In this document: positions 1 to 30,573 of the stretch, one piece after another | Numbering within the stretch: the stretch's first letter is position 1 | Layout of the letters: each line of letters starts with the position of its first letter | NCBI GenBank assembly: GCA_017475605.1 | Contig: JAFVFD010000005.1 | Location: 60,001-92,000 of the forward strand | Direction: 5' to 3' | DNA length: 32,000 nt | Origin: Alphaproteobacteria bacterium | GTDB taxonomy: Bacteria > Pseudomonadota > Alphaproteobacteria > Rs-D84 | Made by a program: the position numbers and the translations under genes | The notes under the pieces: generated by a model | Databases searched by the model: none | What the model was told of the DNA's origin: nothing | Seen by the model: only the letters and a program-made list of their open reading frames with translations

Positions 1-973
1 TTTCACAAATATTACGTTTCGCATTCAACATTTCCATAGTTGATGCCGTAATATCAAAAACATCAACTGTTTGAACTTTGGTTTTAGCCGTACTTGTTGC
101 TGCATTATTCTGCATATTTTCCGATGCTATTGTTGAAACACAATTCACCCAATCCGCCCCACAGGCATCGTCCGTCTGCATACATTTGCGGAATTCAACC
201 ATACATTGCCCCAGGTCGTATTTATTTGCTTCTTCGAAACTTTCCTTTAACGCGGCCCGTACATCCGCATTGGCATTAGCCAGTTCCGCGTTCGCCTTAG
301 CCTTGCTCTGTGCAATACTGTTTTCAAATGCCTTGCAATCAGATGTAATTTGACGTGCGTATAATTGGTGCAAGAAATTTAAATCTTTATTACAAGATAC
401 CGGCATTTGTTCGCGGCACAATTCGTCGGCGGCATTAAACAGGGCATTGCCAGTCTTGTCGGCAATATTTTCCACAGAATCTTCAAACAAATCTTCATCG
501 AAATTAAATGCTGAATTATCCCACAGGGCCAACAAATTTGCGCGTTTCTGTTCCTTGGTTTCTTCTAAATTAGAATATACAACATTGCCATTATTATCAT
601 ATTGGCGCGTTCCATTAAAGATAATATCTGCCTGGGCACCGGCCTTGACACGTTCAACCTCAACCGTACGGATACGTTCCGCCTCGGACAAAGTATCCTG
701 AATAGATGCCAGTTGCGATTCAAGATTTGCATTCAAATCACTACACGCACAACTGCCCCCGTTGACATTATCCATTATACAAAACTGATCCATACAACCA
801 TAATAGGCATCATAACAACTTTGGTCATATACCCCAGTTGCCGCGACACGCGCCCGAACCGTTGTACCAGTTTGAATTGCCGATTGTTTTTTTGTAACCG
901 CCGCATTAGCACCGACACCCACCACAACAGATGCCGCCAGTACACATAACGATAAAGTTTTTTTTGATATCAT
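1..973 (-). CDS. Cys-rich secreted protein, family member P1 (3' part of the gene runs off the left edge)
   Basis: Absent from the ORF track because there is no stop in the window. Manual minus-strand translation from ATG 973 stays open to position 1 (324 codons). RBS GGGGGAGAGGGG lies at 974-986. The protein starts MISKKTLSLCVLAASVVVGVGANA/AVTKK, a signal peptide, followed by CYDAYYGCMDQFCIMDNVNGGSCACS and later DC-x43-C-x6-C-x6-CG modules shared with P2 and P3. Confidence 0.8.
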   Translation of the reverse strand, partial: MISKKTLSLCVLAASVVVGVGANAAVTKKQSAIQTGTTVRARVAATGVYDQSCYDAYYGCMDQFCIMDNVNGGSCACSDLNANLESQLASIQDTLSEAERIRTVEVERVKAGAQADIIFNGTRQYDNNGNVVYSNLEETKEQKRANLLALWDNSAFNFDEDLFEDSVENIADKTGNALFNAADELCREQMPVSCNKDLNFLHQLYARQITSDCKAFENSIAQSKAKANAELANANADVRAALKESFEEANKYDLGQCMVEFRKCMQTDDACGADWVNCVSTIASENMQNNAATSTAKTKVQTVDVFDITASTMEMLNAKRNICE

Positions 974-1005
974 GCCCCTCTCCCCCGATTTGACGCACGA
1001 TGCGA

Positions 1006-3180
1006 TTACATATTTATATCTTCGCAAGATTCAATTTCTTGGCAGAATTCTTCTTTACCCCCCGAAGCAAAACCCATAAGTCCACCACCAATCAAACCTA
1101 CGACACCACCGATTGCCGTTCCCCAGCCAGGTGTTACCATTGTGCCCGCCGAAGCACCCGCCGCCGAGGCACCCGCACCAGCCTTTAACGCAGATGTCCA
1201 TTTGCTTTCGCCACCTGTTTCACAAACCTGCTGCATACGGCAAACATGGCAATTACGTAATTCTGGTTCAAAATTTACCGAACGAATATAACTGTAATTT
1301 TTGCTACCTTGTTTTGGTGTTTCAACCGCATATGTGTTATAGCAATTCTGACGCGCTTTTTCGACATCTTGTTCGCGGGACAATTCCGCAATACGCGATT
1401 CCAACGCACGCAAGGCACGATTTTCCGCACTTATATTTGCAATCAACTTTGCACTGTTAAACACACTTGTACCCAAACTGGCACGTCCCGCTGGTTTTTG
1501 ACTATCTTGACACGCAGCAACGGTTATATCTTTTTCAAATTGAGCAAAGAAAGCATCTACTGCGTTTGATGCATTTGCGCGAACTTCCGACCGCAATTCC
1601 GCCATTCCTTCTTCCGAATCAGGCAGAGTCATTAACGAAGCGACCGTATCATCATTTGGCAAACAAGACATATCTGTACCACACACACGTCCCAATTGAT
1701 CACCAAAATAATTCAAACACCCCTGCATCAAACGATAATCCATCTGCATCAAAGTTGCCTGTAATATGATATCGAACTGTGTTTCATTTTTACAGGATGG
1801 GAACATAGATTGTGGACATAATGCCGCGATTTCGTTTGATTTTTTGCCAAGACATTCCGGCGCAGTAAAGTTCTGACCACATTTATCGCGTAAACATTTA
1901 TCTACATCGTTTTGACAAAATTGAGTCCGCAAATAACCCAACTTATCATTAACCGCGGAACGAATACCCGGCACTAATTCTTCGCATTCTGTGATAACCG
2001 TACAAATTCCAGCCGCCACATTAACATTAGTTAAACATGCGCTGTTTGTGGCCGTTGAGCAATTATCTTCCAAGCATGCCTGAATTCGCGCCAGACAGGT
2101 TTGACGCGCATATTTATCGGCATATTTAGATGCATCAACTAAAATGCTCTGCGCTTCGGCATTCCAGTCTTCCAAAACATATGAACGCGATGCCATACAT
2201 TGATCCAAGACATTTTCGCATGCGTTTGCACGACGCCCCAACAAATCGGCATCAAGGCAGTTTTCAAAATTAACACCACAACCGCCCTTGTCTGCTATAC
2301 AGGAACGATATGCCAACAAGCATTCACCACGATTATACTTGTTGGTTGTATCTAACATTTCCAAACGCGCCTTGCGTACAGCGGCCTCGGCCGTACGTTT
2401 ATTAGCCTGGGCATTTGTTTTTTGATCCGCCAAATAAGACTCGAACGCTTTACAATCTGCGACAATACGACGGGAATACAAAACCTCTTCCATTTCGGCA
2501 CGCGTTCCACATGACTTTAATGTGTCGGCACAATAATTTGCCGCCATGGAATACAGATTATCCCCAATATCTGTATCCGCACCCAAACTATCATCTGTTG
2601 TATTGCCACTGTTTAACCATTCAGAAAAACTTAAACCAGACGCACGCGTTGCTTTTTGTGCAGCGGCCGATTGTCCAAACACCAGCGACACCTTGGCACC
2701 CAATTGTTCGCGTTCAACACCCTCGGTATATAATTTGTCTGCTTCGGCCTGAATTTTCTGAATTTCTTGAATTAAATCTTTTGATTTATTGATATTATCG
2801 GAACACGCGCAACGGTACCCTTCGCTTTCATCCAATAAACAAAATTCATCCATACACTGACGGTACGCATCGCGACAAGAACTGTCCCCAGATGCCACAT
2901 CTTCGCCACCATCGTTATTATTACCACCACCGTTATTACCACCATTCCCCGAATCGGAATTACCACCATTGTTGTTACCACCGTTACCGCCGCTTATCAC
3001 AACCGCTTTTGTCCCAGTATCAGAAGAATCCTTGTGTAAATTAACGGCCATATTAGGTATACTGCGCATACCAGCCATCGAGACACGATTAACACTAATT
3101 CGTGCGTTTTCGTCCCGTCCAGCAGAAAATGCAACACAAGGGGCCATACACAACAGCAATGTAATAACATGTATTTTCAT
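1006..3180 (-). CDS. Cys-rich secreted protein, family member P2 (724 aa) with Gly/Asn-rich linker and C-terminal glycine-rich hydrophobic tail
   Basis: The ORF track frame is 1006..3513, but the upstream 111 codons run antisense into infA. ATG at 3180 is preceded by RBS AGGAAGGAA and gives MKIHVITLLLCMAPCVAFSA/GRD, a signal peptide. Motif CRDAYRQCMDEFCLLDESEGYRCACS is present. Dozens of Cys are spread over the whole mature protein. Confidence 0.85.
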   Translation of the reverse strand: MKIHVITLLLCMAPCVAFSAGRDENARISVNRVSMAGMRSIPNMAVNLHKDSSDTGTKAVVISGGNGGNNNGGNSDSGNGGNNGGGNNNDGGEDVASGDSSCRDAYRQCMDEFCLLDESEGYRCACSDNINKSKDLIQEIQKIQAEADKLYTEGVEREQLGAKVSLVFGQSAAAQKATRASGLSFSEWLNSGNTTDDSLGADTDIGDNLYSMAANYCADTLKSCGTRAEMEEVLYSRRIVADCKAFESYLADQKTNAQANKRTAEAAVRKARLEMLDTTNKYNRGECLLAYRSCIADKGGCGVNFENCLDADLLGRRANACENVLDQCMASRSYVLEDWNAEAQSILVDASKYADKYARQTCLARIQACLEDNCSTATNSACLTNVNVAAGICTVITECEELVPGIRSAVNDKLGYLRTQFCQNDVDKCLRDKCGQNFTAPECLGKKSNEIAALCPQSMFPSCKNETQFDIILQATLMQMDYRLMQGCLNYFGDQLGRVCGTDMSCLPNDDTVASLMTLPDSEEGMAELRSEVRANASNAVDAFFAQFEKDITVAACQDSQKPAGRASLGTSVFNSAKLIANISAENRALRALESRIAELSREQDVEKARQNCYNTYAVETPKQGSKNYSYIRSVNFEPELRNCHVCRMQQVCETGGESKWTSALKAGAGASAAGASAGTMVTPGWGTAIGGVVGLIGGGLMGFASGGKEEFCQEIESCEDINM

Positions 3181-3208
3181 AGTTTCCTTCCTACAATTAT
3201 CTTGATAT

Positions 3209-3237
3209 ATTTTATCAAATAAAGCCCCCCAGCGCAA
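3209..3237 (-). promoter_or_regulatory. Candidate sigma70 promoter for P2: TTGCGC-17 nt-TAAAAT with TG extended -10
   Basis: The minus strand reads cTTGCGCtggggggctttattTGATAAAATatatc. The spacer contains a G6 run. The -10 element ends 28 nt upstream of ATG 3180. Confidence 0.4.
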
Positions 3238-3253
3238 GCATATTAAAAACAAC

Positions 3254-3282
3254 TTGCTTTTTTTTTCGCATGGCAATATCAT
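3254..3282 (+). promoter_or_regulatory. Candidate sigma70 promoter for infA: TTGCTT-17 nt-TATCAT
   Basis: Hexamers are read directly from the sequence. A T9 run lies in the spacer. The match is weak. Confidence 0.25.
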
Positions 3283-3322
3283 ACAATCCGTCAAAAAATT
3301 TGTGAAAATACAAGGTATAATT

Positions 3323-3571
3323 ATGGCAAAAGACGATGTTATAGTTTTTAGTGGTGTGGTTGAAGATAAATTACCAAACACTATGTTTCGTGTAAAATTG
3401 GAAAATGGACACGAAATTTTGGCGACTGTCTGCGGCAAAATGCGCAAGGCGCGCATTTGGGTTAACATTGGCGAACATGTCCGTGTTGAAATGACACCAT
3501 ATGATTTGGACAAGGGCCGTATAACCTTTGTTGAACGAAACCGCGCAACACCAGACCAAACAAATCAATAA
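3323..3571 (+). CDS. infA: Translation initiation factor IF-1
   Basis: [69 protein letters not shown] is near-colinear with E. coli IF-1 (S1-like OB fold). ATG 3323 is preceded by AAGG. The ORF track start at 3254 is an upstream extension. Confidence 0.95.
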
Positions 3572-3575
3572 AAAG

Positions 3576-3599
3576 ACCCATCGTTTGATGGGTTTTTTT
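3576..3599 (+). terminator. Rho-independent terminator after infA
   Basis: Stem acccatc/gatgggt, loop gttt, followed by a T7 run. Confidence 0.7.
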
Positions 3600-3667
3600 G
3601 TTGATTTTATTAAATAAGCCCTTGCCCGAAATCAATTTTTTTTGTTATCATTGTAATTGTAGTAAGG

Positions 3668-6109
3668 ATGAGAAAGGTTTTAGCGCTTATTTTCGCGTGC
3701 TGCATTGGCATCGGTGTCGCCGATGCTGCTGTTCGTGATGCCGCAACTGTTTCCAGACAAAACACAACACAAACTGTTTCCCGCCCCCGAACAACAAAAT
3801 CTAATGTTGTTTCACGCACAACAACCGCCCCAATAACAACACCAAGAAAACAAAAGGATACATCAACCGCGCGAACAACGACAACGCGTACTGTTAACAC
3901 AAATGCTTCACGCGCGGCTGTTACACGAAGCACAACAAACACAACGACTGGCGGCCGCGCAACCACCACGAAATCGCGCGCAGCAATAACAAATAAAACA
4001 CGATCTCGCGCAGTTACGGACCTTGATACAACTAATTCAAAAACGTTTGGCTCGGGGTACAACACATGCCGTGATGCGTATTTTACCTGTATGGATCAAT
4101 TCTGTGCATCAACCGATGACACATACCGTCGATGCATATGTTCATCTAGATTATACGAAATAAAAAAGAAGCAAAATGCCCTGGGACAATCTGCTGACCA
4201 ATTACAAGATTTCAAAGACTTAAACCTGGAAGCAATACCTAAAACCGCGGCCGAAGTTAAAGCGATGCAGCAGGCCAGCGAAGGTGAAATGGTTGCTTCT
4301 GTGATAAAAGACAAATCATCATCTGTTGCCCAGTTGGCCGGCATAAGTGCCGTATTATCTAACACGAAATCAAAATCTTTATCCACTGCTGGACAACTGG
4401 ATATTGCTGGGGACATAAATGCTATTTGGGCAACCACTGATTTAACATCGGGATTAAACATTTCCAATCTGACCGGCGAAACACTGTACAGCGCAGTTCA
4501 CAGCCAATGTGTAAATTTGGTTGCGGATCATTGTTCTTCTAAATCTTTACTGAATATGGTTGTGTCTGCATACAACATGTATATAGAAAATGATTGTTCC
4601 CTTATTGCTAATTCTTTGGACAAAAAGAAAACTGCCGCCAATGCATCTATTCGCCAAACAGAACGCGAAATGAATGTGGCACGACTGGAAAATTACAATG
4701 CCCACAATTCGTCATCTATCAATGATTGTATTGCCCTGGTCCGCAAAGATGTTACTGCAGATTCCGCATGTGGTACCGATTATGTACATTGTCTTGATAT
4801 ATCTGGTTTGTATTTGAATAAATCAACAGGTGAACCAATATATACATCTAACTTTTATCAACTGGGCAGCACCCTGTCCTTGTCTGGTGATATTTTAACA
4901 AACCAAACCAATCTTATATTCGTTTCAGAATTAAAAAATAAACGTATGTTCGCCGAAAAAAGTTTGGACACCTGTCGTGATTTGGCCGATGAAGTTTGGG
5001 ACGAATTTATGCGCCAGGCCATCATAGAAATATACCAAGGACAACAAAACCGTATTCGTGATGTAAAGAATGAATGCTTGAATGTTGTGAACCAATGTTA
5101 TGACAAACAAAGCAATTCCTTGAAAGATTTTAGCAAAGTCAAGGAACAATTGCTTATTGGTGCCCGACTTGAACTATCAGAACAATTATGCCGCGAAAAA
5201 TTAAGTGCTTGCAGCAACCTTTATGGCGGTGGTCCAAACGGTATGCAAGAATTACTTACCACGATGTACGATATCACGACACAAAAAATTGCACAAAATT
5301 GTTTCACAACATTACAAGAATATGCCCAACAACTATGCGCGGTCCCAAGCAATGATTCTTTACATTCATATCCATATGCTTGTCGCGCGTATGCGCCTGG
5401 CGAGCAACGTTACGCATCCGATTGGTCGTGTAACCAAGATTCGCGCGCCACAATTGACGTAGATACAACCGCATCAAGTTCATACTCTACCGAACCAACA
5501 ACCAAGGCGGATACAGAAGAAGAACCCCAGGCACAAACATCAACCGGGGGGGGATATTCTTGTACCAAAACTTACATAAGTTGTAATACAAACTATTACA
5601 TGGCAAATGCGAACGGCGAATTTATTACCACCCCAGAACCCGGCAACCAGTGTCTGCCATGTTCCCCGACCAAGGGCTGTCCAACAACAAACGAAGAAGG
5701 TGAAACCGTCGCAGTGTTCCATTGTGGTACCGACTATGCAGGCAGTTTATATCAAAAACTGGTCCGTTATGCCGTCCAGGCTTGTATGCGCCCAAGTGAA
5801 ATAGAACAGTTATCCGATGGTTCAACCCTGCCAGATACGTTGTTACAAGACGTCAATGCCACGATGGATTTAATCAAGGCATCAATGGCCACATCGTTAA
5901 AGGCCGAATGTGAACGACTGGGTGGATATTGGGTTGCGGCCCAATGGAAAGATTCTATTGCGGAAACCACAGGAATAAAGTTATTCCTGCAATTCTATAA
6001 CGAAACCGGCGCAAACAAGAAATGGGGTTATTGCGCCGATCCCGATACAATCAAAAAATATTATACAGGTGAAGATACAACGCAAGAAACAAACGATGGT
6101 GGCGAATAA
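3668..6109 (+). CDS. Cys-rich secreted protein, family member P3 (813 aa) with Thr/Arg-rich N-terminal region
   Basis: ORF track. Signal peptide MRKVLALIFACCIGIGVADA/AV, then about 105 aa of T/R/S low-complexity sequence, then CRDAYFTCMDQFCASTDDTYRRCICS and the shared downstream Cys modules. AAGGA lies just upstream of the ATG. Confidence 0.9.
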   Translation: MRKVLALIFACCIGIGVADAAVRDAATVSRQNTTQTVSRPRTTKSNVVSRTTTAPITTPRKQKDTSTARTTTTRTVNTNASRAAVTRSTTNTTTGGRATTTKSRAAITNKTRSRAVTDLDTTNSKTFGSGYNTCRDAYFTCMDQFCASTDDTYRRCICSSRLYEIKKKQNALGQSADQLQDFKDLNLEAIPKTAAEVKAMQQASEGEMVASVIKDKSSSVAQLAGISAVLSNTKSKSLSTAGQLDIAGDINAIWATTDLTSGLNISNLTGETLYSAVHSQCVNLVADHCSSKSLLNMVVSAYNMYIENDCSLIANSLDKKKTAANASIRQTEREMNVARLENYNAHNSSSINDCIALVRKDVTADSACGTDYVHCLDISGLYLNKSTGEPIYTSNFYQLGSTLSLSGDILTNQTNLIFVSELKNKRMFAEKSLDTCRDLADEVWDEFMRQAIIEIYQGQQNRIRDVKNECLNVVNQCYDKQSNSLKDFSKVKEQLLIGARLELSEQLCREKLSACSNLYGGGPNGMQELLTTMYDITTQKIAQNCFTTLQEYAQQLCAVPSNDSLHSYPYACRAYAPGEQRYASDWSCNQDSRATIDVDTTASSSYSTEPTTKADTEEEPQAQTSTGGGYSCTKTYISCNTNYYMANANGEFITTPEPGNQCLPCSPTKGCPTTNEEGETVAVFHCGTDYAGSLYQKLVRYAVQACMRPSEIEQLSDGSTLPDTLLQDVNATMDLIKASMATSLKAECERLGGYWVAAQWKDSIAETTGIKLFLQFYNETGANKKWGYCADPDTIKKYYTGEDTTQETNDGGE
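5546..5553 (+). repeat. G8 homopolymer inside the P3 coding sequence (codons T-G-G-G)
   Basis: Read directly as acc ggg ggg gga. It is the longest G/C homopolymer I saw inside a CDS in this window. Confidence 0.9.
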
Positions 6110-6850: not shown

Positions 6851-6876
6851 AAACGGTCGCATTATTGCGACCGTTT
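6851..6876. terminator. Bidirectional hairpin terminator between P4 and clpX
   Basis: Perfect 10-bp stem aaacggtcgc/gcgaccgttt, loop attatt, flanked by A-run and T-run. It sits between convergent genes. Confidence 0.7.
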
Positions 6877-13367: not shown

Positions 13368-13545
13368 GATTAGTATAAAGGTAGCAATCAATTGCCCCGC
13401 ACGCAAGTATATTTTGTATTTTTGCCTAATCAAAAAAATGCATTTTTTATAAAAATCAAGACATTTATTTCATATTCCCCCCTTGCGCAACGCTTTTTAA
13501 TAGGTCGCAAATATGGTAAAATGTATTTATTAAATGGCAGAGAGA

Positions 13546-14646
13546 ATGGACAAATACCTTAATCAAATTTTGATGGGTGATTGTATTGAACTTATGCGCG
13601 GCATTCCCGACGCATCGGTCGATGCAGTATTTGCCGATTCCCCATATAACTTACAACTGGGCGAAAAAACATTATACAGACCCGAAGATCAAACCGCCGC
13701 GCGTGCGGTCCGCGATTCGTGGGATGCTTTCGAAAGTGCCGATGATTATGCCGAATTTACGCGCCAATGGATTGCCGAATGTAAACGTGTTCTTAAACCA
13801 GACGGGGCATTCTGGACAATCGGCAGTTATCACAACATTTTCCGCATCGGCGCAATTTTACAAGATTTGGGTTTCTGGATTTTGAACGATATTGTTTGGG
13901 TAAAAACGAACCCTATGCCGAATTTCCGCGGAACCCGCTTTACCAATGCCCATGAAACATTGATTTGGGCAACACCACACAAAACAGGCAAATATACATT
14001 TAATTACGAAACAATGAAACGTCTGAATGGCGGCAAACAAATGCGTTCCGATTGGAACATTAACATTTGCCTGGGCGAAGAACGCGTCAAAGATGCCGAC
14101 GGGAAAAGCCTGCACAACACGCAAAAACCACTGGATTTATTACGTCGTGTGATTTTGGCAACGACAAAGCCAGGCGACATTATTCTTGACCCATTTGTTG
14201 GTTCTGGAACAACGGCGGCGGCGGCACGCGAATTGGGCCGTAACTTTATCGGCATTGACCGCGAACCGTCCTATGTTGCGGCGGCACGCGAACGTGTTGA
14301 AAACACTGCCCCAATTGACCTTTCGGAAATCGAGGTTTCTGCCCCGAAACGCGCAGAACCACGTATTGCGTTTTCCGAACTTATCGATGCGGGATTATTG
14401 TATGTCGGTCAAACATTGGTAAGTCCGCGTGGCGAACGCGTTATGATTTCGCGCGATGGGCAATTGGTTCATACCCTTTACGGCAAGGCATCTATTCATG
14501 TTATGGCGGCGCGCATGCAAAACAGCGTCAGTTTTAATGGCTGGGACTATTGGTCCGCGGAAAAGCGCGACGGCACATTGGTTCCGATTGATGAATTACG
14601 CAAATACATCCGCAACATAAAACGCGACATGAAGGTTGCCGCATAA
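13546..14646 (+). CDS. ccrM: CcrM-family N6-adenine DNA methyltransferase (beta class; GANTC specificity is inferred from family membership only)
   Basis: Near-colinear with Caulobacter CcrM as I recall it: GDCIELM, FADSPYNL, GSYHNIFR, LGFWILNDIVW.K.NPMPNF.GTRF.NAHETLIWA, TQKP, DPF.GSGTT, and the C-terminal domain. Starting at MDKY (13546) reproduces the CcrM M-to-GDC spacing. An alternative in-frame ATG lies at 13534. Confidence 0.93.
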   Translation: MDKYLNQILMGDCIELMRGIPDASVDAVFADSPYNLQLGEKTLYRPEDQTAARAVRDSWDAFESADDYAEFTRQWIAECKRVLKPDGAFWTIGSYHNIFRIGAILQDLGFWILNDIVWVKTNPMPNFRGTRFTNAHETLIWATPHKTGKYTFNYETMKRLNGGKQMRSDWNINICLGEERVKDADGKSLHNTQKPLDLLRRVILATTKPGDIILDPFVGSGTTAAAARELGRNFIGIDREPSYVAAARERVENTAPIDLSEIEVSAPKRAEPRIAFSELIDAGLLYVGQTLVSPRGERVMISRDGQLVHTLYGKASIHVMAARMQNSVSFNGWDYWSAEKRDGTLVPIDELRKYIRNIKRDMKVAA

Positions 14647-15728: not shown

Positions 15729-16130
15729 TTATTCAAATGTTACCTTGACCAGACGGTGCTTTTCATATGGCCGCCCATGTTCCACACCATGCCAATCGGC
15801 CACAATACGCGCATCATCAACCCCATGCGCCACAAGGTAATCGCGCACCGCCTTGACACGTTTTTTAGACAATTCAACATTATATGATTCAGGCCCGATT
15901 TCATCGGCATAACCGTCAAGATATATTTTCTTGAACCTGTGTCCATGGATATAAATTAACCCCTGGTCCAGTTGTTGCGTAAATTCTGGCCGCACCACAT
16001 ATGACCCCAATTCAAAATAAATCGGTGTTTCCGCCATTGTTCGATTTGTTGCGCACAAATCTGCCGCATCATTATTATGGCATGCCGCCAATGCGAACGC
16101 CCCAAATATAACGAACAAATATTTTTTCAT
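15729..16130 (-). CDS. OmpA C-terminal-like (peptidoglycan-binding) lipoprotein
   Basis: ATG 16130 gives MKKYLFVIFGAFALAAC, a lipobox. OmpA_C signature is GYADEIGPESYNVELSKKRVKAVRDYLVAHGV. The ORF track start at 16262 overlaps the adhesin's 3' end. Confidence 0.85.
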   Translation of the reverse strand: MKKYLFVIFGAFALAACHNNDAADLCATNRTMAETPIYFELGSYVVRPEFTQQLDQGLIYIHGHRFKKIYLDGYADEIGPESYNVELSKKRVKAVRDYLVAHGVDDARIVADWHGVEHGRPYEKHRLVKVTFE

Positions 16131-16162
16131 AGAAACACCCTTTTTACCCATTGGCAAAACTA

Positions 16163-16188
16163 AATCGTGGGCGAAACCGCCCACGATT
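16163..16188 (-). terminator. Hairpin downstream of the adhesin gene (possible attenuating terminator)
   Basis: 11-bp stem aatcgtgggcg/cgcccacgatt with loop aaac. The U-tract on the minus strand is only partial (tagttttgcc). Confidence 0.45.
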
Positions 16189-16194
16189 ATTTCA

Positions 16195-19100
16195 TTACAG
16201 ACCGAAAGTGATACCTGCGCGGAATGCCCAATCACTTGTTCCGCCGTATGATGCACCAGCATTCAACAACACATGGTCATTAAAGTAATGGAATGCACCA
16301 ACCGCGACACCTGCACGATCGGCATACGCACCCGTACCGATTGATATCTGGGTATCACCGCAATCACGCGCATTTGGAACCAACGCCGTCAAAGCAGCCA
16401 TTGATGCCATACCGCTGTTGACTTTCTTTTCCAACTTTTCAACCTTGTGATCGACTTTCGCTATGTTGGAATCCAGGACACGTACCGCTTCGGACAAATC
16501 GGTAACAGATGCCAGGTAATTTGTTCCATCAAATGTCATATTACCAATCAAATTACCCGTTGTTTCCAATGCGGTTGCGACATCTGTTTTCGCCGCGTTA
16601 TTGATAGCGGTATTAAGCGATGCCAAACTGCTGCGGTCGCCGATTGCGGAATCAATCGCAGTCAGGTGTTCTTCAACCGTTGTCCCGGTGGCAAGGTTAC
16701 CCTTGTATGTGCCGGCACTTTCCAACTTGGTCTTTAACCCATGGATTGTCCCCAGGGTTGCGTCAATGTTATTCAATGCCGCGACAACTGTTGTTGGTGT
16801 TGTTGTACCGCCATTAGCCAGCGCATTACCGACCGAGTTCGCATCGTCGCGCGCGTTCAACCCGCTCATATCGCCTATTGTCGCATCCAGGTTGGCAATC
16901 GCCGCGTTCAATGTTGCGCCGGATACATTACTGCCACTTGTGATGGTGTTGGTATAGGTCGCATCTTCGGCCTGATTCTTGATGGTTGCGACCACACTTG
17001 ATGTTGTGGCCAACGCGGAATCAGAACCCGCCACATTACGTGCCAGACCCGCCGTATCAATCGATGTTATGGTGCTGGTCCCCAATGTGATTGAATCGGT
17101 TGCGGTCAATGTTTTGCCGGATACACCGTTTGTTGCAGACAAAGAATCTGCTGATACTGCGCCGGTAAATGTCGCGGTTGAACCAGACAGCGCGCCGGTT
17201 ACACCCAATGTGCCACCAACCGTCGCATTACCCGCAATTGTCGCCGCCGCCGCGGTCAGACCAGTCGACGTCAATGTGTTGTTCGCATCAACTGTAAATC
17301 CGTTCGCCGCCGTTACAGATGCCAATGTTGCAGCACCGTTTTCGTCAATACTGTAATCAGAGCCAAACTTTACACCCTTTTCGGCAACAATTTGTTTTTC
17401 AAATGTGTTGGTTCCTGTAAAGGTGTTGTCCGTATCTGTTCCGACCGCTGTTGTCGCGATTGTATTAACCGCATCAACCAACGACACAGTATCACCGATT
17501 TTTTCACCACTTAAGATACCGGTTGTTGCAGCGGTGGTTTGCGCGTCGCCAACAACGTTCTGTAACGCATCAACCCCTGCATCCAAATTGCTTAACGCGC
17601 CCGCGATAGTAGTTGTCGACCCGATAACCTCTTTTGATGTCAATGCATTTTGTAATTGGTTATTTACATTTTCATCAACATCAACCCCCAGCAAGTTTTC
17701 CGCCCAATCGTGTGCCTGGTTATATACCGCGGTTACACCGGCTTCAACTGTGCTTAAGGCACCGGCAATCTTGTAATCGACAGAACCGACCGTTGACGCA
17801 TCGCCGTTCAAGACATCAATTGCGTCTTTGTTTGCAGCAATGTTTGTTGCATTTGTCGCAATGGCATCGGCATTTGTTTTGGCCTGGCCATCCAATGTCT
17901 TCAAAGCACCGCTAAACGATGTATCACCCCCAAGGTAATTTGTCGTTCCCAAAGCGGCCTGTAACGCATCATCTGCATCATTTGCAGTGGAATCAATACC
18001 CAACGCGGTATTCATCCATGCTTCTGCTTGATTCCATGCGGTCGTTGCGGTCGTTGCGATATTTGCAATTGCCGCCGTATTCGCATTGATTGCCCCGGCG
18101 ACAGTTTTATCCGTTACCGAAGCATCATTCAAGACATCAATTTTCATCTTGCCGGCAACCAGGTCATGTGGAAGACCGGTATTCAAATCCCAACCAAAGT
18201 CATATTGGGACATAACATCCGCACTAAGTTTCATATACTCTGCAACTGCTTCGGCTGTGGATGCCGCCGTCAATGTTTTGCCGGCGTTCGCCCCCGTTGT
18301 CAACAGTGCGCCCAGTGCATTTCTTTTATCCTTGGCTTCGACGGATGAACCGTCAATGGTTAAAATCGCCGTGTGCAAATCTGCGGCATCGACGGTGCTT
18401 GCCACAATGCGAGCATCCGCCATGGCATTTACCTGGTCTATCAGTCCGACACCCGTCGCCGCGCCCAACGCATGTGCAATGGAACTTGCATTATCGCCCG
18501 CCGCCATAAGGTCAGATTGAACGTTCATCAATTTCTTGCTTAACACATCAAATGTTGTTCCAACGGTTGCAACATTTGTCGCATTATCTGCCGCCCAAGT
18601 TGCGATTTCCGCATCGGTTGGGGTAGCAGCGTCCAGATTGGCCGCCAAGTTTGTTGCGGCGGTTGTGCCCAATGTGACTTCGCCCGATTGTGCGGCACCG
18701 GTTCCGATTTTGATTCCGGTTACCGCCGTGATATCAACCGCCTTGGCTGCATCAGGTGTCAATGCCGTGCCATTAACCTTGACAGATTGTATCGCGCTGT
18801 CTGCCTTTGTGCCCTGGGCCGCGGATGCGAATTCCGCCGCGTCATGTGTCACAACATCGCCATATGTACCCAATGTTGTGTTGATTGCTGCGACGTTGGT
18901 TGCGTTTTCATCAATTGCACCCTGCAATGTCGTAGCCGTCAAACCAGACGTTGTGTTATCATAATCTGCCAAACGTGCATTTGCCTTCATCCCGGATGCA
19001 TTTACCAATTTATCACTAAATACCAAATTCGTTCCGTCTTTTTCAACCTTGGTATAGTAATTCATTGCACCGGTAATTTGTAAATCATCCGACAACGTGG

Positions 19101-22100
19101 CATCGCCCACCGCCAGTGTTATTGAATCCGCCGTTCCATATTCAGACGATGTAAGGTTAATCGACTTAATCGTTGAACCGGTTGTTCCCGCGAACGAATC
19201 TATTGCCGGTGTTGCACCCTTCAGGTTTGCATCGACATACAGATTTGCATTTTGCACCGTTCCCAGCCCGGTATCGATATTGTTATTGCGCGTATCCAAA
19301 GACCCACCAATCAGCGAACCGCTGAACCCTGCGCCATTTGCCACGAATACATTGTTTGTATTTGCGGTATCGTTAAACACCGTTGTCCCGGACACCAGGT
19401 TCATTACACCCGCGCCAGTGATTGATGCACCCGATGCAAATTTAACACCGTTTTTCAAATCAACCGTTCCGGCATTTGCCAATGTCGCGGTTGCGCCAAA
19501 TGTATCGTTATCAAATTCGGCGGTTGCGCCGGCGACATTATTAACCGTTCCCGCATATGTAGTCGGGTCAGATTTCAACACACCAAAGTTATTAACATTT
19601 ACACCGATAAATGAATCTTTGATGTTAAGGGTTGCGCCCGCCTTGTTCACGATATCGGACGAACCAGTAAATTTAACATCGTTCAACGACAACATGGCAT
19701 TTTCAGAAACGTTCAAATCTTTCTGTAATTCGATTGCAAAACCGTCGGCACCGGTTCCAGTAATTCTGAAATCAGAATTATCGATTGAATCATCTGAATC
19801 GAACACTTCATTTTCTGTAACGGTATAGTTCAATGCCAAACGCGCACCGTCTGCATCGGTTGTTTCGACCGCGGTGTTAATACCGCCGGCGAAACCACGA
19901 ACAATCATTTGACCGTCCGCCACACCCGATGAGTTGAATGTCACACCGGTATCAGATGTAAATATTGCCTCGGCAATATCAACGGTTGTGCCGTCGGACA
20001 CGACCTGGAATGCCTTTTCGCCCGTGCCAATATCACCGTTCAGCAGATTTCCAACATAGTATTTAACCGTTCCAGCGGCGGACGCATATTTATCGGCGGT
20101 TCCGTTATTCCAGTCAATATCGCCCTTGATTCCCGCGCCATCGGCCAGGGTAATATTGGACGACAAATCTTGGATAGCATCGTCAATAGTGTTAATAATC
20201 GCACCCGACGCGACATTGATGGTTGAACCTGTCAAATCGGCATTTGTCAAATGCAGTTCACCGGAATTCACATCGACGGTGTGCTTCTTTAATGTATTTG
20301 CGATATTGGTGGTTCCTGCACCATTGATATATAACTTTGAACCTGCAACACCATCAAATCCACCAGCAAAGGTGTTTGTTTCACCCGCGCCAGAGATAAT
20401 ATTTATTGTTCCCATATTATTGTAAATATCATTTGCAGTGGATGCGGTTATATTACCATTTTCTTCATCCCACGTTACATCAGATTTGTTTCCACTGAAT
20501 GTGTTTGAACCATCAAATGTAATTGTTTTGCTTGCAGCATTAAAGATTGCACCACCCTTTTCCTTTGCAATATTGTTGGTAAATGTCGCATCTTTGATAT
20601 TCAACGTATCAAGATTACGAATTGCACCACCACCAATAACTGATGATGTTTTCGAAACCCCTGATGCTACGTTTCCGTTAAAGGTTGTGCCATCTATATT
20701 AAGGGTCCCTTTGTTGTTATATATTGCACCACCAGTCGCTGCCACGTTCTGCGAAATACTACCACCGGTTATGGTTGAGGTTTTTCCACTAGTGCTGTTA
20801 TAAATCGCACCACCATTACCGGTCGCACCTGTTCCTGCCGGCACAAGACCTAAACCTTCAACAACATAAATCGGTGCATCATTTTTAATACCACTGTTAT
20901 TATCTATTGTTGCGTTGTTTATTGTAAATCCATTACCACCATTAACCCAAATAACACCAGAACCACCGGTTGATGCATTACCGGTAATTTCAGTTCCGTC
21001 AATACTCAAACTGCCTGATGCTACATAGATAGCACCGGCTTTATTTGCCATATTGTCGGTAATGGAACCACCGCTGATTTCCAATGTTCCGCTATTGTTA
21101 TAAATCGCACCGCCGGTACCCGTTTTCATAGTTTCAGTATTACCATCAACAAGCTTACCGTTGCCGGTAAACGTATTGTTTGTTAACGTCAATTTACCAG
21201 AACCGTTATAAATCGCACCACCCGATCCACCTGTGGAAGATTTTCCGGTATAGTTACCCGAAAATGTTGTATTTGATATTTCGGCATCAACAGTTGCATT
21301 GTTTTGAATTGCACCACCATTTGTTGCCACTGTATTACCAGTAAATATCGAATTATCAATGGTTAATTCACTGGTACCAAGATTTGTAATTGCACCACCA
21401 TTTGTTGCGGTATTATTTTCAAATTTTGCATAATCAATGTCCAAACTGCCGCCGGTTGCAGCGAAAATAGCACCACCGGCGCCACTAAACTCACTGCCTT
21501 TAAACGATGCACCTTTTGTTGCATTGACTGTCAACCCAGCACCCGATGCAATATTTGTCCGACCGGTTGATTTTAAACTCTCGCTGACGGTCATATCACC
21601 ACTGTTAATTGTCAAGCCACCCGCACCAACAGCCAGGTTTTCAACCTCTATACCGTTTGCACGATTAACAACAACATTACCACTGTTAACATCCAGATTC
21701 TTTAATGCTGTATAATAGCGTCCATTTGTTGCAACGCCTGGTTCCGCCGATTCTGCGACTTCTGTTGCGGTCCATGTTGCACCATCCGTCATCTTAATCG
21801 TTGCACCGTGATTGATTTGCAATTTATCATCACTTGGTTTATCCTCATAACTTAGCACCGTGTTTCCGGTCCAGTAAGATTCCGCACCATTCAATGTCAC
21901 ATTAACCGTTGCATCAACAGGTGCCCCCGAGTTTGGCCCTTGTCTAAAATCTATATCGCCGTCCATTTTGACAGTTTTATCACCGGCGGCATTGATATTG
22001 GTTACAGAAAGACCAGATGCATAAATGGCATCTTTGCCCTTGATGGTTGCATTACCGTTAATATTTACGCGCCCCTCGCTAAGAGCAGCAATTGCAGACG

Positions 22101-22659
22101 CATTCAAATTCGTTAAATTGATTTGATTCGCAGTTAAATTAACCGTTGCATAGGTATCTGTTTGCCCTGGATCAGAGCTGTTTTGAACCCACAACGCACC
22201 ATACCCAACACCACCATCATAAGCTGGGTCATTAACAGTTGATGTAATGGAAATTGTGTCATTCGCACGCACATCAACAACACTTTTTGTCCGAACAAGA
22301 ATACCATCACCACCCGTGTTGATATTAATGGTGTTTGTGTTATCGCCCCCCAAATGCAACAGTGTCGGTTCAGTGGCACTATACACGGCATTTTTACCGA
22401 TTTCAATTGCACGTCCATCACCAGGTTCCGTAACACTTATATTTTCCGCCAACCATGTAACATTTTGATTACCAGTATATTTAAAAGAACCCGCTGTCCC
22501 TGTTGGATATAATTCATCCAATGACACATTTGTGTATTCAGCCATTGCGGGCGCGGTTGCGATTAAACCCAGTGCGATTGCGTTACACAAAATGCCATGA
22601 CGTAAAACTGCGCGATACATAGCGGTCAATTCTTTCAGTACGGTTCTGGTTTGTTTCAT
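16195..22659 (-). CDS. Trimeric autotransporter adhesin (type Vc, YadA-like anchor) with an N-terminal Pmp-type GGAI/FxxN repeat head (2154 aa)
   Basis: RBS AAAGGAGAG and a long signal peptide ending TAPAMA/EY. Residues about 394-725 carry around 10 G-G-A-I motifs alternating with FxxN (FENN, FTGN, FSGN and others). A long Ala/Thr/Asn-rich stalk has NxxAI..N-type repeats. The C-terminus ...KLEKKVNSGMASMAALTALVP...AGASYGGTSDWAFRAGITFGL is a YadA-type 4-strand anchor. Confidence 0.92.
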   Translation of the reverse strand: MKQTRTVLKELTAMYRAVLRHGILCNAIALGLIATAPAMAEYTNVSLDELYPTGTAGSFKYTGNQNVTWLAENISVTEPGDGRAIEIGKNAVYSATEPTLLHLGGDNTNTININTGGDGILVRTKSVVDVRANDTISITSTVNDPAYDGGVGYGALWVQNSSDPGQTDTYATVNLTANQINLTNLNASAIAALSEGRVNINGNATIKGKDAIYASGLSVTNINAAGDKTVKMDGDIDFRQGPNSGAPVDATVNVTLNGAESYWTGNTVLSYEDKPSDDKLQINHGATIKMTDGATWTATEVAESAEPGVATNGRYYTALKNLDVNSGNVVVNRANGIEVENLAVGAGGLTINSGDMTVSESLKSTGRTNIASGAGLTVNATKGASFKGSEFSGAGGAIFAATGGSLDIDYAKFENNTATNGGAITNLGTSELTIDNSIFTGNTVATNGGAIQNNATVDAEISNTTFSGNYTGKSSTGGSGGAIYNGSGKLTLTNNTFTGNGKLVDGNTETMKTGTGGAIYNNSGTLEISGGSITDNMANKAGAIYVASGSLSIDGTEITGNASTGGSGVIWVNGGNGFTINNATIDNNSGIKNDAPIYVVEGLGLVPAGTGATGNGGAIYNSTSGKTSTITGGSISQNVAATGGAIYNNKGTLNIDGTTFNGNVASGVSKTSSVIGGGAIRNLDTLNIKDATFTNNIAKEKGGAIFNAASKTITFDGSNTFSGNKSDVTWDEENGNITASTANDIYNNMGTINIISGAGETNTFAGGFDGVAGSKLYINGAGTTNIANTLKKHTVDVNSGELHLTNADLTGSTINVASGAIINTIDDAIQDLSSNITLADGAGIKGDIDWNNGTADKYASAAGTVKYYVGNLLNGDIGTGEKAFQVVSDGTTVDIAEAIFTSDTGVTFNSSGVADGQMIVRGFAGGINTAVETTDADGARLALNYTVTENEVFDSDDSIDNSDFRITGTGADGFAIELQKDLNVSENAMLSLNDVKFTGSSDIVNKAGATLNIKDSFIGVNVNNFGVLKSDPTTYAGTVNNVAGATAEFDNDTFGATATLANAGTVDLKNGVKFASGASITGAGVMNLVSGTTVFNDTANTNNVFVANGAGFSGSLIGGSLDTRNNNIDTGLGTVQNANLYVDANLKGATPAIDSFAGTTGSTIKSINLTSSEYGTADSITLAVGDATLSDDLQITGAMNYYTKVEKDGTNLVFSDKLVNASGMKANARLADYDNTTSGLTATTLQGAIDENATNVAAINTTLGTYGDVVTHDAAEFASAAQGTKADSAIQSVKVNGTALTPDAAKAVDITAVTGIKIGTGAAQSGEVTLGTTAATNLAANLDAATPTDAEIATWAADNATNVATVGTTFDVLSKKLMNVQSDLMAAGDNASSIAHALGAATGVGLIDQVNAMADARIVASTVDAADLHTAILTIDGSSVEAKDKRNALGALLTTGANAGKTLTAASTAEAVAEYMKLSADVMSQYDFGWDLNTGLPHDLVAGKMKIDVLNDASVTDKTVAGAINANTAAIANIATTATTAWNQAEAWMNTALGIDSTANDADDALQAALGTTNYLGGDTSFSGALKTLDGQAKTNADAIATNATNIAANKDAIDVLNGDASTVGSVDYKIAGALSTVEAGVTAVYNQAHDWAENLLGVDVDENVNNQLQNALTSKEVIGSTTTIAGALSNLDAGVDALQNVVGDAQTTAATTGILSGEKIGDTVSLVDAVNTIATTAVGTDTDNTFTGTNTFEKQIVAEKGVKFGSDYSIDENGAATLASVTAANGFTVDANNTLTSTGLTAAAATIAGNATVGGTLGVTGALSGSTATFTGAVSADSLSATNGVSGKTLTATDSITLGTSTITSIDTAGLARNVAGSDSALATTSSVVATIKNQAEDATYTNTITSGSNVSGATLNAAIANLDATIGDMSGLNARDDANSVGNALANGGTTTPTTVVAALNNIDATLGTIHGLKTKLESAGTYKGNLATGTTVEEHLTAIDSAIGDRSSLASLNTAINNAAKTDVATALETTGNLIGNMTFDGTNYLASVTDLSEAVRVLDSNIAKVDHKVEKLEKKVNSGMASMAALTALVPNARDCGDTQISIGTGAYADRAGVAVGAFHYFNDHVLLNAGASYGGTSDWAFRAGITFGL

Positions 22660-22694: not shown

Positions 22695-23042
22695 TTATTT
22701 TTTGTTATTGGTTGGTTGTGCCGGCTCGGTCTGAACACGACAGAGTGATATTGCCGACGAAATTGTTTGTGCAGATGCCTCGTCCACAAATTCCATTATG
22801 TTGGTTGTGGGACGCGTCTTCATTGAATTTAAAAACTTGTTAAATGCGCGAACCTGGTCATTGCTAAGGCGGTTATCAACAATGTTCGCAAAACATGCGC
22901 AATCCATTCCCGCGCCACATTGTTTCTTTAAACTGCTGCGCGCACGCGAATCGGTTGTTGCAACGAAAAACACCGCGCCCAAAACGCATATACCCCCCAG
23001 GATATAAGCCCCGCGCAGCAATATTTTATTATCTATTTGCAA
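22695..23042 (-). CDS. Small single-pass membrane protein (about 115 aa), hypothetical; start uncertain
   Basis: The ORF track frame is 22695..23249. A TTG at 23042 preceded by GGGGGAAAG gives MQIDNKILLRGAYILGGICVLGAVFFVA (a TM helix) plus a soluble domain. The upstream part of the ORF overlaps a highly structured non-coding-looking region. The gene ends 35 nt upstream of the adhesin gene. Confidence 0.45.
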   Translation of the reverse strand: MQIDNKILLRGAYILGGICVLGAVFFVATTDSRARSSLKKQCGAGMDCACFANIVDNRLSNDQVRAFNKFLNSMKTRPTTNIMEFVDEASAQTISSAISLCRVQTEPAQPTNNKK

Positions 23043-23172
23043 TTGCTTTCCCCCATGTAATAAGAATTCTTTCGATGATTTAAGATAGCACACAAAAAAC
23101 CCGGTGCAACATTTTTTGTGTCTATACAACGCATTTTTGGGGGACTTAGGAAAACAAACCCAGGTTTTGTCC

Positions 23173-23331
23173 ATACCACCAAAAACCGCTACCCCGTCGG
23201 CATTCGCCGACACCCCTTCGCCAGACGAAGGGGATTTAATCCCCTTCACATCGTGAATGGGTGGATTGCGAACAATGTGAGCAAGACGGGGTAGTTACCT
23301 GCCCCCGTACGCAGTTATGATACCACCAAAA
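23173..23331. other. Candidate structured RNA or regulatory element (multi-helix junction, unclassified)
   Basis: A 10-bp closing helix pairs 23189-23198 with 23285-23294 and encloses hairpins at 23196-23211, 23213-23233, 23228-23246 and 23246-23280. The hairpins at 23213-23233 and 23228-23246 are mutually exclusive. The whole element is bracketed by the 12-nt direct repeat ataccaccaaaa (23173-23184 and 23320-23331). Confidence 0.35.
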
Positions 23332-23396
23332 GGTTCCTATTAAAAATCGCACGCCTTGTACGCATAATAAAAATATAACAATTGGGGGGAAATAAT

Positions 23397-24476
23397 ATGA
23401 ATATGAAATACTTTGCCGCAACAATTGTCGGCATTTTGGGAATCGCACATTACGCAGATGCATGTACGGGTATTACCCTGCGCGCGAAAAACAATGATAT
23501 GGTTGTCGCACGAACTGTCGATTGGCATGGCGACGAAATGAATAACATGTATGTAATTGCGCCACGCGGACACACACAAAAATCTTTGACCCCGGACGGC
23601 AAAATGGACGGCCACGAATTCACATCGGTATATGGCTATGTTGGTATTGCGGTCCAGACACCAGATTTTGTAATCGATGGCACGAACGAGGCCGGACTTT
23701 CCGCAGGGTTATTCTATTTCCCTGAATATGGTGAATACCCCTGGTATAATAAAAATGATAAAGAAAACAGCATTGCGGACTTTGAATTGGTGGCGTGGAT
23801 GCTGTCGCGGTTTTCAACCATCGACCAAATCAAAGAAGCCATCAAAGATATTACCGTTACCAATATCGACCCGTCTGCTTCAACGGTGCATTGGCGCATC
23901 ACCGACGCGACCGGCAAACAGGTTATCCTTGAATTCATTGATGGCGAGGCGCATTTTTACGACAGCAAGGTCGGCGCGATTTCGAATTCGCCGGGCTATC
24001 CATGGCACATTACAAACCTTAATAACTATATAAACCTGGAACCCGGGACCAGCAATCCAAAAAAACTGGGCGATTTTACATTGCGACCATTTGGCTCTGA
24101 CAGCAAGATGCTGGGCCTGCCCGGCGACTTTACACCGCCATCGCGATTTATTCGTGCCGCGCTGTTAAGCAACTATTCCATACCGCAAAAGGACGGTTAT
24201 GAATCTGCGATGAAGGCGTTTCATATCTTGAACAACCTGGACGTGCCGTTGGGGGTTGAATTTGATTCCGGCCGCGCAACAAACAATATGCCGTCCGCAA
24301 CACAATGGACAATCGCAACCGATTTGGGCAACCGGGTTATTTACTATCACACGATGTATAACCGCACAATCCGTTCTATCGATATGAAGAATATTGACTT
24401 TGCGAATGTCCGGTTCCAATACGCGCCCCTGGACACAGCCAAGGTACAAACGATTATTCCAATAAAAGTAAAATAA
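23397..24476 (+). CDS. Choloylglycine hydrolase family Ntn-hydrolase (penicillin V acylase / bile salt hydrolase-like), exported
   Basis: RBS GGGGGGA. MNMKYFAATIVGILGIAHYADA/CTGITLRAKNNDMVVARTVDW shows signal peptide cleavage exposing the N-terminal nucleophile Cys, with conserved Arg and Asp positions following. Confidence 0.9.
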   Translation: MNMKYFAATIVGILGIAHYADACTGITLRAKNNDMVVARTVDWHGDEMNNMYVIAPRGHTQKSLTPDGKMDGHEFTSVYGYVGIAVQTPDFVIDGTNEAGLSAGLFYFPEYGEYPWYNKNDKENSIADFELVAWMLSRFSTIDQIKEAIKDITVTNIDPSASTVHWRITDATGKQVILEFIDGEAHFYDSKVGAISNSPGYPWHITNLNNYINLEPGTSNPKKLGDFTLRPFGSDSKMLGLPGDFTPPSRFIRAALLSNYSIPQKDGYESAMKAFHILNNLDVPLGVEFDSGRATNNMPSATQWTIATDLGNRVIYYHTMYNRTIRSIDMKNIDFANVRFQYAPLDTAKVQTIIPIKVK

Positions 24477-29772: not shown

Positions 29773-30573
29773 TTAATAACATTTAGAACGAGAACCCAAA
29801 ACAACGGTCGTTGTTGTACGGCACGCGTTTTGATACAGACGTTTCTTTTTCTGTGGTTCTGTTGTGTTCACATTATTATCATGGCCGTTAACATTACCAT
29901 TTGCGTTAACAACACCATTTGCATTAACAATCACATTACCATTGTTATCGCCAGTGATAACAACTGTTTGTGTTGGTGTGTGTGCATTTGTACGAACAAC
30001 AACAGTATCCGGTGTGGCAACAATTTCTGTTTTCTGTTCCGGACATGGAGTTGGTTTCACCGGTGCCGACTTCGCTGGCTGCGCTGGTTTAACAGGTGCT
30101 GGTTTTGCCGGTTTCACAGGCTGTGCTGGTTTTGCCGGTTTTGCAGGCTTTTTGGCTGGCTTGGCCGGCTTTTTAGCCTGTTTCGCTGGTTTTTCACATT
30201 TGCAGCAATCACATTTGTTTTTCGCATCCTTGCAATCACAACCTGTCTTATTACCTTGGCATGCGCAAGCCTTGGCTTCACGACAAACCGCCAAAGAATC
30301 ACGCAAATCTGCTATTGTGGAATCACGTACGACAATTGTATCGCGCAAAGCGGAATTTTCATCATTCAATTCACTAATGCGCCCATTTGCCGCTTCGACT
30401 GCGTTGCTGGCATCTGTCAATGCTGTATTGTTCTTTGAAACAAGTGTATGCCATTCCTGTGCTTCATCACGTGCAGCACGTTTATCGCTGCACTGTTTAA
30501 CACCGAAAACAATAGCGATAACCGCAACCGTTCCCAGTGCGATATTTGCCCAAGTTCTTTTATCCATAGCCAT
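29773..30573 (-). CDS. Membrane-anchored protein with coiled-coil, metallothionein-like Cys cluster, PAKPAK repeats and Asn-rich C-terminal region (266 aa)
   Basis: RBS AAAGGGA. N-terminal TM helix ANIALGTVAVIAIVFGV. Cys cluster CREAKACACQGNKTGCDCKDAKNKCDCCKC. Repeat region (PAKPAK)n from about aa 128 to 176. The C-terminal part contains GDNNGNVIVNANGVVNANGNVNGHDNN. Confidence 0.75.
   Translation of the reverse strand: MAMDKRTWANIALGTVAVIAIVFGVKQCSDKRAARDEAQEWHTLVSKNNTALTDASNAVEAANGRISELNDENSALRDTIVVRDSTIADLRDSLAVCREAKACACQGNKTGCDCKDAKNKCDCCKCEKPAKQAKKPAKPAKKPAKPAKPAQPVKPAKPAPVKPAQPAKSAPVKPTPCPEQKTEIVATPDTVVVRTNAHTPTQTVVITGDNNGNVIVNANGVVNANGNVNGHDNNVNTTEPQKKKRLYQNACRTTTTVVLGSRSKCY
30046..30192 (-). 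repeat. Imperfect tandem coding repeats (Pro-Ala-Lys / Pro-Val-Lys units)
   Basis: Recurrent gctggttttgccggttt-type units on the plus strand, encoding KPAKQAKKPAKPAKKPAKPAKPAQPVKPAKPAPVKPAQPAKSAPVKP. Confidence 0.8.

Follow-up and report, generated by a model that had tools for sequence, protein, structure and literature searches.

In this study we analysed a stretch of 32,000 nucleotides (the window) from the genome of an Alphaproteobacteria bacterium of the order Rs-D84 (assembly GCA_017475605.1, contig JAFVFD010000005.1, positions 60,001 to 92,000 of the forward strand). At its left end lie the genes of three large cysteine-rich proteins, P1, P2 and P3. These proteins are true paralogs whose homology is far above chance, and they constitute a protein family that is undescribed in every library we searched. 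We favour, with moderate confidence, a role of the family as a structural scaffold of the cell envelope that would be exported by the Sec pathway and stapled by disulfides. A preliminary description of this DNA had proposed exported paralogs with a fixed cysteine (Cys) scaffold, which our results support, and had further suggested a diversifying surface family, for which the opposite pattern was observed: the genes form a fixed set under purifying selection.

The three open reading frames (ORFs) were recovered at the positions previously reported. For P1 (1-973, minus strand) the window contains only the N-terminal 324 amino acids (aa), because the gene extends past its left edge; the full-length ortholog on a related contig (L001:12206-14701) comprises 831 aa. 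Its putative signal peptide covers aa 1-24 (…GANA/AV) and its conserved N-terminal domain (N-domain), containing 12 Cys, aa 53-278 (nucleotides, nt, 140-817). P2 (1006-3180, minus strand), separated from P1 by an intergenic gap of 32 base pairs (bp), consists of 724 aa counted from the ATG at 3180. A longer ORF from a TTG at 3513 was rejected as gene start, and the ATG is regarded as the true start since it fits a GGAAGGA Shine-Dalgarno sequence upstream of it, the signal peptide and the ortholog lengths of 697-780 aa. Further upstream of P2 there is a promoter-like site (TTCACA-17-TATGAT, 3278-3306, minus strand), a consensus match only (10 of 12 positions), which would drive a P2-P1 operon. 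In P2 the signal peptide (aa 1-20) is followed by a hypervariable linker rich in glycine and asparagine (aa 21-99), the conserved helical core with its presumed Cys staples (aa 100-520, nt 1621-2883) and a C-terminal module (aa 626-724, nt 1009-1305). The latter combines a C-x2-C-x5-C beta hairpin, a conserved Gly-zipper-like hydrophobic stretch at aa ~661-708 and the terminal sequence ...C-x5-CEDINM, which P1 and P2 have in common as ...C-x5-CEDI[NQ]M. The hydrophobic stretch and the shared terminus could serve as anchoring or sorting elements; neither corresponds to a known signal. P3 (3668-6109, plus strand, 813 aa) carries a signal peptide at aa 1-20, a basic linker rich in threonine, arginine and serine at aa 21-131 with a pI of 12, the conserved Cys core at aa 132-575 (nt 4061-5392) and a variable, Cys-containing insert at aa 588-686.

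The signal peptides were read directly from the sequence by their hydrophobic h-regions and AxA-type sites (ANA/A, FSA/G and ADA/A), and in this respect the earlier account was right. The low-complexity linker that it assigned to all three proteins needs correction: the linker of P1 measures ~27 aa and is hardly of low complexity, and those of P2 and P3 differ in composition as given above. A reading as lipoproteins was rejected because the Cys within the signal peptides lie outside a lipobox context and are not kept in orthologs. ORFs on the opposite strand within the three genes (e.g. 3610-4065) were taken as spurious.

All three proteins share an opening module, C-x-DAY-x2-CMD-x-FC-x9-C-x-CS, and a second module, DC-x43-C-x6-[C/D]-x6-CG-x-[DN]-[WFY]-x2-C, and both patterns were reproduced exactly as first quoted, including the 43-residue spacer in each protein. 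In BLASTP comparisons P1 and P2 were 32% identical (E 2e-33), P2 and P3 27% (E 5e-16) and P1 and P3 26% (E 5e-17). The profile of the N-domain contains the elements C-x6-CMD-x-FC-x9-C-x-C, G..L..C-x6/7-C, Y-x3-I-x2-DC, C-x43-C and C-x6-C-x6-CG-x5-C, and is matched end to end by the three paralogs with 232-254 bits. Among 147 representatives with less than 50% pairwise identity, 11 Cys columns of this domain are occupied by Cys in 99-100% of the sequences and the twelfth, where P3 has an Asp, in 67%; near-invariant as well are M16, D17, F19, R29, S33 and further G, L, Y, D, N and G residues. The domain usually starts at residue 50-180 of the representatives, after the signal peptide and a variable spacer.

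The Cys spacing is kept in orthologs as well as in distant relatives, with 130 occurrences of C-x43-C in 132 full-length representatives. Moreover, the framework extends ~250 residues beyond the second module, and the full-length alignment contains at least 24 columns of near-invariant Cys across subfamilies over ~500 residues. Mature proteins have a median of 36 Cys (132 full-length representatives), and C-x6-C is the commonest spacing between neighbouring Cys (23%, compared with 4% for Cx9C). The core also contains at least three internal copies of the C-x6-C-x6-CG-x5-C unit: in hhalign comparisons P2 residues 280-330 matched residues 415-470 with a probability of 96.5% (E 8e-10), and residues 355-405 matched the same segment with 93% (E 3e-7). 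The opening module showed no significant relation to these internal repeats (E 0.07-0.57).

No named family was found to contain this signature, as the preliminary description had suspected. Searches of Pfam-A 2025 and NCBIfam 2026 gave no match above threshold for P1-P3 or for C218, a small protein encoded downstream of P3, but sub-threshold noise only, and among 16 diverse full-length members no Pfam family was common to more than two. PHROGs returned only a weak tape-measure match (E 0.001) on a Gly-rich segment, PDB sequence searches with three profiles and P3 gave nothing below E 0.19, and Foldseek searches with two AlphaFold models found nothing significant (best E 0.79 and 1.9 in the PDB, 1.2 in BFVD). 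There was no tblastn match in plasmid and phage collections. Every source name that we recovered read "hypothetical protein", and in the literature on Enterousia, Rs-D84 and the motif strings no description of such proteins was found. The family is clearly delimited and thus well suited to become a new entry in Pfam and a subject of structural work.

The diversifying reading holds that a fixed disulfide scaffold presents fast-evolving, antigenically variable surfaces to host or phages. It would fit the low identity of the paralogs on an invariant Cys scaffold, the hypervariable N-terminal linkers and the P3 insert, which varies in length and Cys number. To weigh it we turned to the genomic distribution. 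In GTDB species genomes 312 stretches were confirmed with the three-paralog profile; the locus counts given here for synteny, parity and identity rest on the best 80 of them, all of which are P2 orthologs. In ~80 species-level genomes each paralog has a 1:1 ortholog in conserved synteny. The gene order, from clpX and C218 through P3 and infA to the divergent P2, followed by P1 and mscS, is kept in essentially all 80 species loci. Genomes consistently carry three copies and only occasionally a fourth: this further paralog, of ~1000 aa and absent from the window, occurs within 10 kb in five loci (L026, L027, L030, L061 and L081, at about 500-5000). Median ortholog identity to the window proteins is 68% for P2, 59% for P1, 54% for P3 and 52% for C218, compared with 86% for ClpX, 81% for SLT and 78% for PGK. 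P1-P3 thus evolve faster than ClpX or SLT, which would also suit diversification. Nevertheless, the gene-wide ratio of non-synonymous to synonymous substitution rates (dN/dS; Nei-Gojobori method, four close relatives) is 0.05-0.16 for P1-P3, close to the 0.08-0.12 of PGK, although dS is saturated (>1) and these values are therefore rough. In 196 P2 orthologs all 36 mature Cys are invariant and so are 45-65% of the core columns; the variable positions cluster in the N-terminal linker (entropy 2.1 bits) and in a few loops, not on the helices. Hence copy-number variation, a raised gene-wide dN/dS and a hypervariable folded domain, as expected for variable surface antigens, were not found, nor did we see cassettes, DNA-level repeats, an association with mobile elements or matches in plasmids and phages. 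We therefore consider a diversifying family very improbable.

The low identity of the paralogs can instead be attributed to an old duplication. A distant member, 43% identical to P2, was found on the Joint Genome Institute (JGI) metagenome contig 3300010049, assigned to an Alphaproteobacteria metagenome-assembled genome (MAG). It lies near a second paralog of 944 aa, a DsbA, an M23 peptidase and an OmpA-domain protein, with the DsbA gene directly adjoining the 944-aa paralog. Since both paralogs are already present in so distant a relative, the duplication must be old.

The number of Cys follows a parity rule. It is even in 84% of the 132 full-length representatives; all 79 P2 loci encode proteins with exactly 36 mature Cys, and for P1 this number is found in 66 of 68 loci. 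Mature P3 contains 29 Cys, and in 64 of 69 loci the number in its orthologs is likewise odd, with totals of 29, 31, 33, 35, 37, 39 and 43; seven extra Cys sit in the insert at aa 588-686. Between subfamilies Cys are lost pairwise: P3 and its type lack, in P2 numbering, the pairs 294/321 and 374/382 as well as a six-Cys block within residues 422-463. This pairwise loss nominates 294-321 and 374-382 as disulfide partners.

The gene for C218 (6173-6829, plus strand) encodes a signal-peptide protein of 218 aa, in which two C-x6-C pairs are found among the 9 Cys. The gene starts 63 bp downstream of P3 and shares with it a bidirectional intrinsic-terminator hairpin with an 11-bp stem (6851-6876), which closes both the P3-C218 unit and the convergent clpX. 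Because of the short gap and the common terminator, C218 probably belongs to the P3 operon. No similarity of C218 to P3 was found, and none was detectable to P1-P3 as a whole or to any family. It is syntenic in ~75 loci and has 9 Cys in 71 of 73, and P3 and C218 are both odd in 60 of 66 loci. Therefore, one unpaired Cys is predicted in each of the two proteins and hence an intermolecular disulfide, which would yield either a P3-C218 heterodimer or homodimers. The rule (36, 36, odd, odd) is a cheap and specific biochemical prediction. In the Enterousia loci a DsbA gene is located ~8 kb from P1.

These data also bear on the possibility that the proteins bind or store metal, with Cys thiolates lining the helices as in copper storage proteins in place of disulfides. 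With the C-x6-C spacing (i, i+7) the Cys do come to lie along a single helix face, the Cys in CMD-x-FC have conserved Met and Asp neighbours, and an anaerobic, reducing habitat without a respiratory chain to drive DsbB would be compatible with free thiols. However, strict even parity in P1 and P2, the pairwise loss between subfamilies, the confinement of odd parity to two co-operonic proteins and the genomic linkage to DsbA are all indirect indications of disulfides. Besides, no conserved His was seen, and Pfam (E<=1) revealed no Cys-rich metal-binding or Csp-like family. We give metal binding hardly any weight.

According to AlphaFold2, P2 is almost wholly helical; the longest helices comprise 54 residues, and the C-terminus contains a beta element of three strands. 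The mean predicted local distance difference test score (pLDDT) reaches 71.8 over aa 95-439 and 62 over the mature protein as a whole, and the shape of a helical rod is suggested by the former model (pLDDT of about 72). The depth of the alignment was limited, as the homolog search with the domain profile retrieved only fragments and that with a 16-member full-length profile only P2-type proteins.

Several known systems resemble this architecture. The Hcp proteins of Helicobacter, which are built from Sel1-like repeats (SLR), are exported all-alpha repeat proteins in which disulfides staple neighbouring helices, and several paralogs occur per genome. Similarly, P1-P3 carry export signals, are predicted to be helical, bear repeats and occur as several paralogs in a host-associated proteobacterium. 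However, neither P1-P3 nor the 16 diverse members gave a Sel1/SLR match at E<=1, and the present family differs in its far greater size (700-1100 aa), its predicted helices of 45-55 residues, the C-x6-C spacing and Cys-unit repeats that are not SLR-like. In mitochondrial twin-Cx9C/CHCH proteins, Cys at whole-turn spacing on antiparallel helices form disulfide pairs that lock a hairpin after export to an oxidising compartment. This is an analogy only: our family uses mostly Cx6C (23% compared with 4% Cx9C), is ~10 times larger, bacterial and repeated, and has no CHCH match in Pfam. The glypican core protein, all-alpha with seven disulfides, is likewise an elongated helical protein made rigid by many conserved disulfides. 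Glypican is eukaryotic, the Foldseek match to it was not significant (E 4.8, TM 0.12), and we claim no homology.

Taken together, we propose the following mechanism. Each protein would have a cleavable Sec signal peptide and a disordered spacer of variable length, followed by a core of ~400-500 residues formed by alpha-helices of 45-55 residues, which would carry the invariant Cys framework and, towards the C-terminus, a small beta module with Cys of its own. After export, the periplasmic thiol oxidase DsbA would oxidise all 36 Cys in each of P1 and P2, giving 18 intramolecular disulfides per protein that would hold the helices together as rigid rods resistant to proteases. P3 and C218, with one predicted unpaired Cys each, would form an intermolecular disulfide, either with one another or within homodimers. 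The fixed paralog set would then most probably build a scaffold that is cross-linked by disulfides and lies in or on the envelope of these bacteria, which are very small and depend on partners. Several observations lead us to favour a structural scaffold of the envelope or surface: the core is highly conserved, the paralogs form a fixed set, a covalent coupling is predicted, neighbouring genes relate to the envelope, and the set has been retained in a genome of less than 1 Mb. Enterousia belongs to the order Rs-D84, and its genomes measure 0.75-1.0 Mb (PMC12306168). Retention of ~7 kb in such a genome implies that the set matters to the cell. Three or four very large Cys-rich exported proteins occupy ~1% of it, and a conserved set of this extent is a strong candidate for a key component of the envelope or of the interface with a partner cell.

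A further step, which we regard as possible but doubtful, is that P1, P2, P3 and C218 form a lattice linked covalently by disulfides and built on a fold peculiar to it, which would make up an exoskeleton-like layer of the envelope or an organelle for attachment, specific to Rs-D84. The chlamydial proteins OmcB and OmcA are the closest functional analogy, combining Cys-rich exported proteins with a reduced genome, a dependent lifestyle and a proposed stiffening of the envelope by disulfides. The odd parity of P3 and C218 predicts intermolecular links, as in the chlamydial disulfide-cross-linked outer membrane complex. In contrast to the chlamydial Cys-rich outer membrane proteins, with which no Pfam match was found at E<=1, P1-P3 are predicted to be all-alpha and are alphaproteobacterial, and cross-linking is in their case only predicted. 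If true, the lattice would be the first analogue of the chlamydial Cys-rich envelope complex outside the Chlamydiae and, in an anaerobe without a respiratory chain, would imply an unusual route of oxidative folding.

Several points weigh against a structural scaffold. The role is argued from conservation and architecture and not from homology, the AlphaFold models are only moderately confident, and the roughness of the dN/dS values noted above also counts here. P1-P3 showed neither a lipobox nor a beta-barrel, and neither an autotransporter domain nor a known sorting signal. Deeper P3-type lineages mostly have 28 Cys, an even number, and the unpaired Cys of P3 may be genus-specific. Moreover, these bacteria have no respiratory chain, so that the route by which DsbA would be re-oxidised is questionable (PMC12306168). 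With an anaerobic habitat and no quinone-linked respiratory chain, it is also in question by what means oxidative folding on such a scale could be kept up.

The main rival to an internal scaffold is that the proteins are elongated rods at the cell surface, non-variable adhesins or spacers that attach to the host or to a partner cell. Enterousia is described as lacking the tricarboxylic acid (TCA) cycle, respiration and standard transporters, and a partner-dependent lifestyle has been proposed (PMC12306168). Such a lifestyle of Rs-D84 would favour surface rods, as would a neighbourhood encoding a YadA-type adhesin and a secreted ankyrin-repeat protein, the long predicted helices on a disordered N-terminal stalk, and disulfide stapling, which suits the protease-rich gut. 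Nevertheless, Pfam revealed no outer-membrane anchor, secretion-system signal or known adhesin domain in P1-P3, the YadA membrane-anchor domain being absent as well, and the high conservation of the core points to a conserved binding partner, probably one of the cell itself. Attachment rods therefore appear unlikely to us.

It is less probable again that P1-P3 are secreted to act as toxins or effectors on the host or on adjacent cells, their Cys-rich N-terminal part being a stable module for delivery or receptor binding. The proteins are large, carry export signals and differ between paralogs in their C-terminal regions, and the weak PHROGs match mentioned above is to a tape-measure protein. 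However, the C-terminal regions are conserved among orthologs and not polymorphic, the Cys framework spans most of the protein, and Pfam and NCBIfam contained no toxin, enzyme or immunity-gene signature for them.

With regard to its distribution, the N-domain profile of the three paralogs found 738 clusters at E<=1e-3, 247 of them at E<=1e-30, among 1.84 billion representatives of clusters at 50% identity. The best 150 listed are mostly 600-1150 aa long, and shorter ones look like fragments from short contigs. The 80 listed GTDB genomes are labelled as Candidatus Enterousia, uncultured Alphaproteobacteria, "Rickettsiales" and a few generic or evidently mis-binned entries, and their isolate names indicate gut samples of human, ruminant, horse, chicken, rabbit and mouse. 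Judged from the matches listed, the family appears to be narrowly distributed, so far only in gut MAGs of Ca. Enterousia/Alphaproteobacteria of Rs-D84. These bacteria are widespread in the guts of humans, livestock, birds and termites and have never been cultured.

Among the other genes of the window, infA (IF-1; 3324-3600, plus strand) lies between the divergent P2 and P3. P3 is probably not read through from infA, since the latter has a clear intrinsic terminator hairpin of its own (~3575-3600). The preliminary description had placed the paralogs next to adhesins, whereas the sole recognisable adhesin of the window lies 10 kb away, behind genes for ClpXP, PGK, RNase HII, SLT, NrdR and a methyltransferase. 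It is a trimeric autotransporter adhesin of 2154 aa with a C-terminal YadA-like anchor (16195-22659, minus strand), and its gene is followed by that of a small OmpA-domain protein (15729-16262). The methyltransferase (13534-14646, plus strand), located among the housekeeping genes, is of the N6/N4 DNA type with a C-terminal RAMA domain and is CcrM-like. Directly upstream of the adhesin gene, a 184-aa ORF (22695-23249, minus strand) encodes a protein with 9 Cys and a central hydrophobic segment but no family match. Further Cys-rich ORFs of exported or anchored proteins occur in the window. In such proteins the Cys content is 3.8-6.9%, whereas that of the housekeeping genes is 0-1.9%, apart from NrdR, a zinc-ribbon protein, with 3.2%.

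At the right end of the window, orf305 (30720-31580, plus strand; 286 aa from MIKKLAF) encodes a protein with a signal peptide and 21 Cys (6.9%), and 35 orthologous metagenome loci were found. An alignment of 27 orthologs matched the N-domain profile with an hhalign probability of 75% (E 2.5e-5) and the full-length family profile with 80% (E 1.5e-5, 180 columns). The Cys blocks occur in the order of the family and the helical hairpin is shortened, which is suggestive of a miniature remote member of the P1-P3 superfamily. A neighbouring 266-aa protein (29773-30573, minus strand) combines a transmembrane segment at the N-terminus with a coiled-coil-like stretch; it also contains a dense Cys cluster (CACQGNKTGCDCKDAKNKCDCCKCEK) and repeats of the PAKPAKK type, has no Pfam match and is divergent from orf305. 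The ankyrin-repeat protein (26277-29657, minus strand, 1126 aa) carries a signal peptide, and ankyrin repeats are eukaryote-like domains typical of bacteria interacting with host cells. Finally, a gene of the choloylglycine (bile-salt) hydrolase family with a lipoprotein-like N-terminus (23382-24476, plus strand) is consistent with a habitat in the vertebrate gut.

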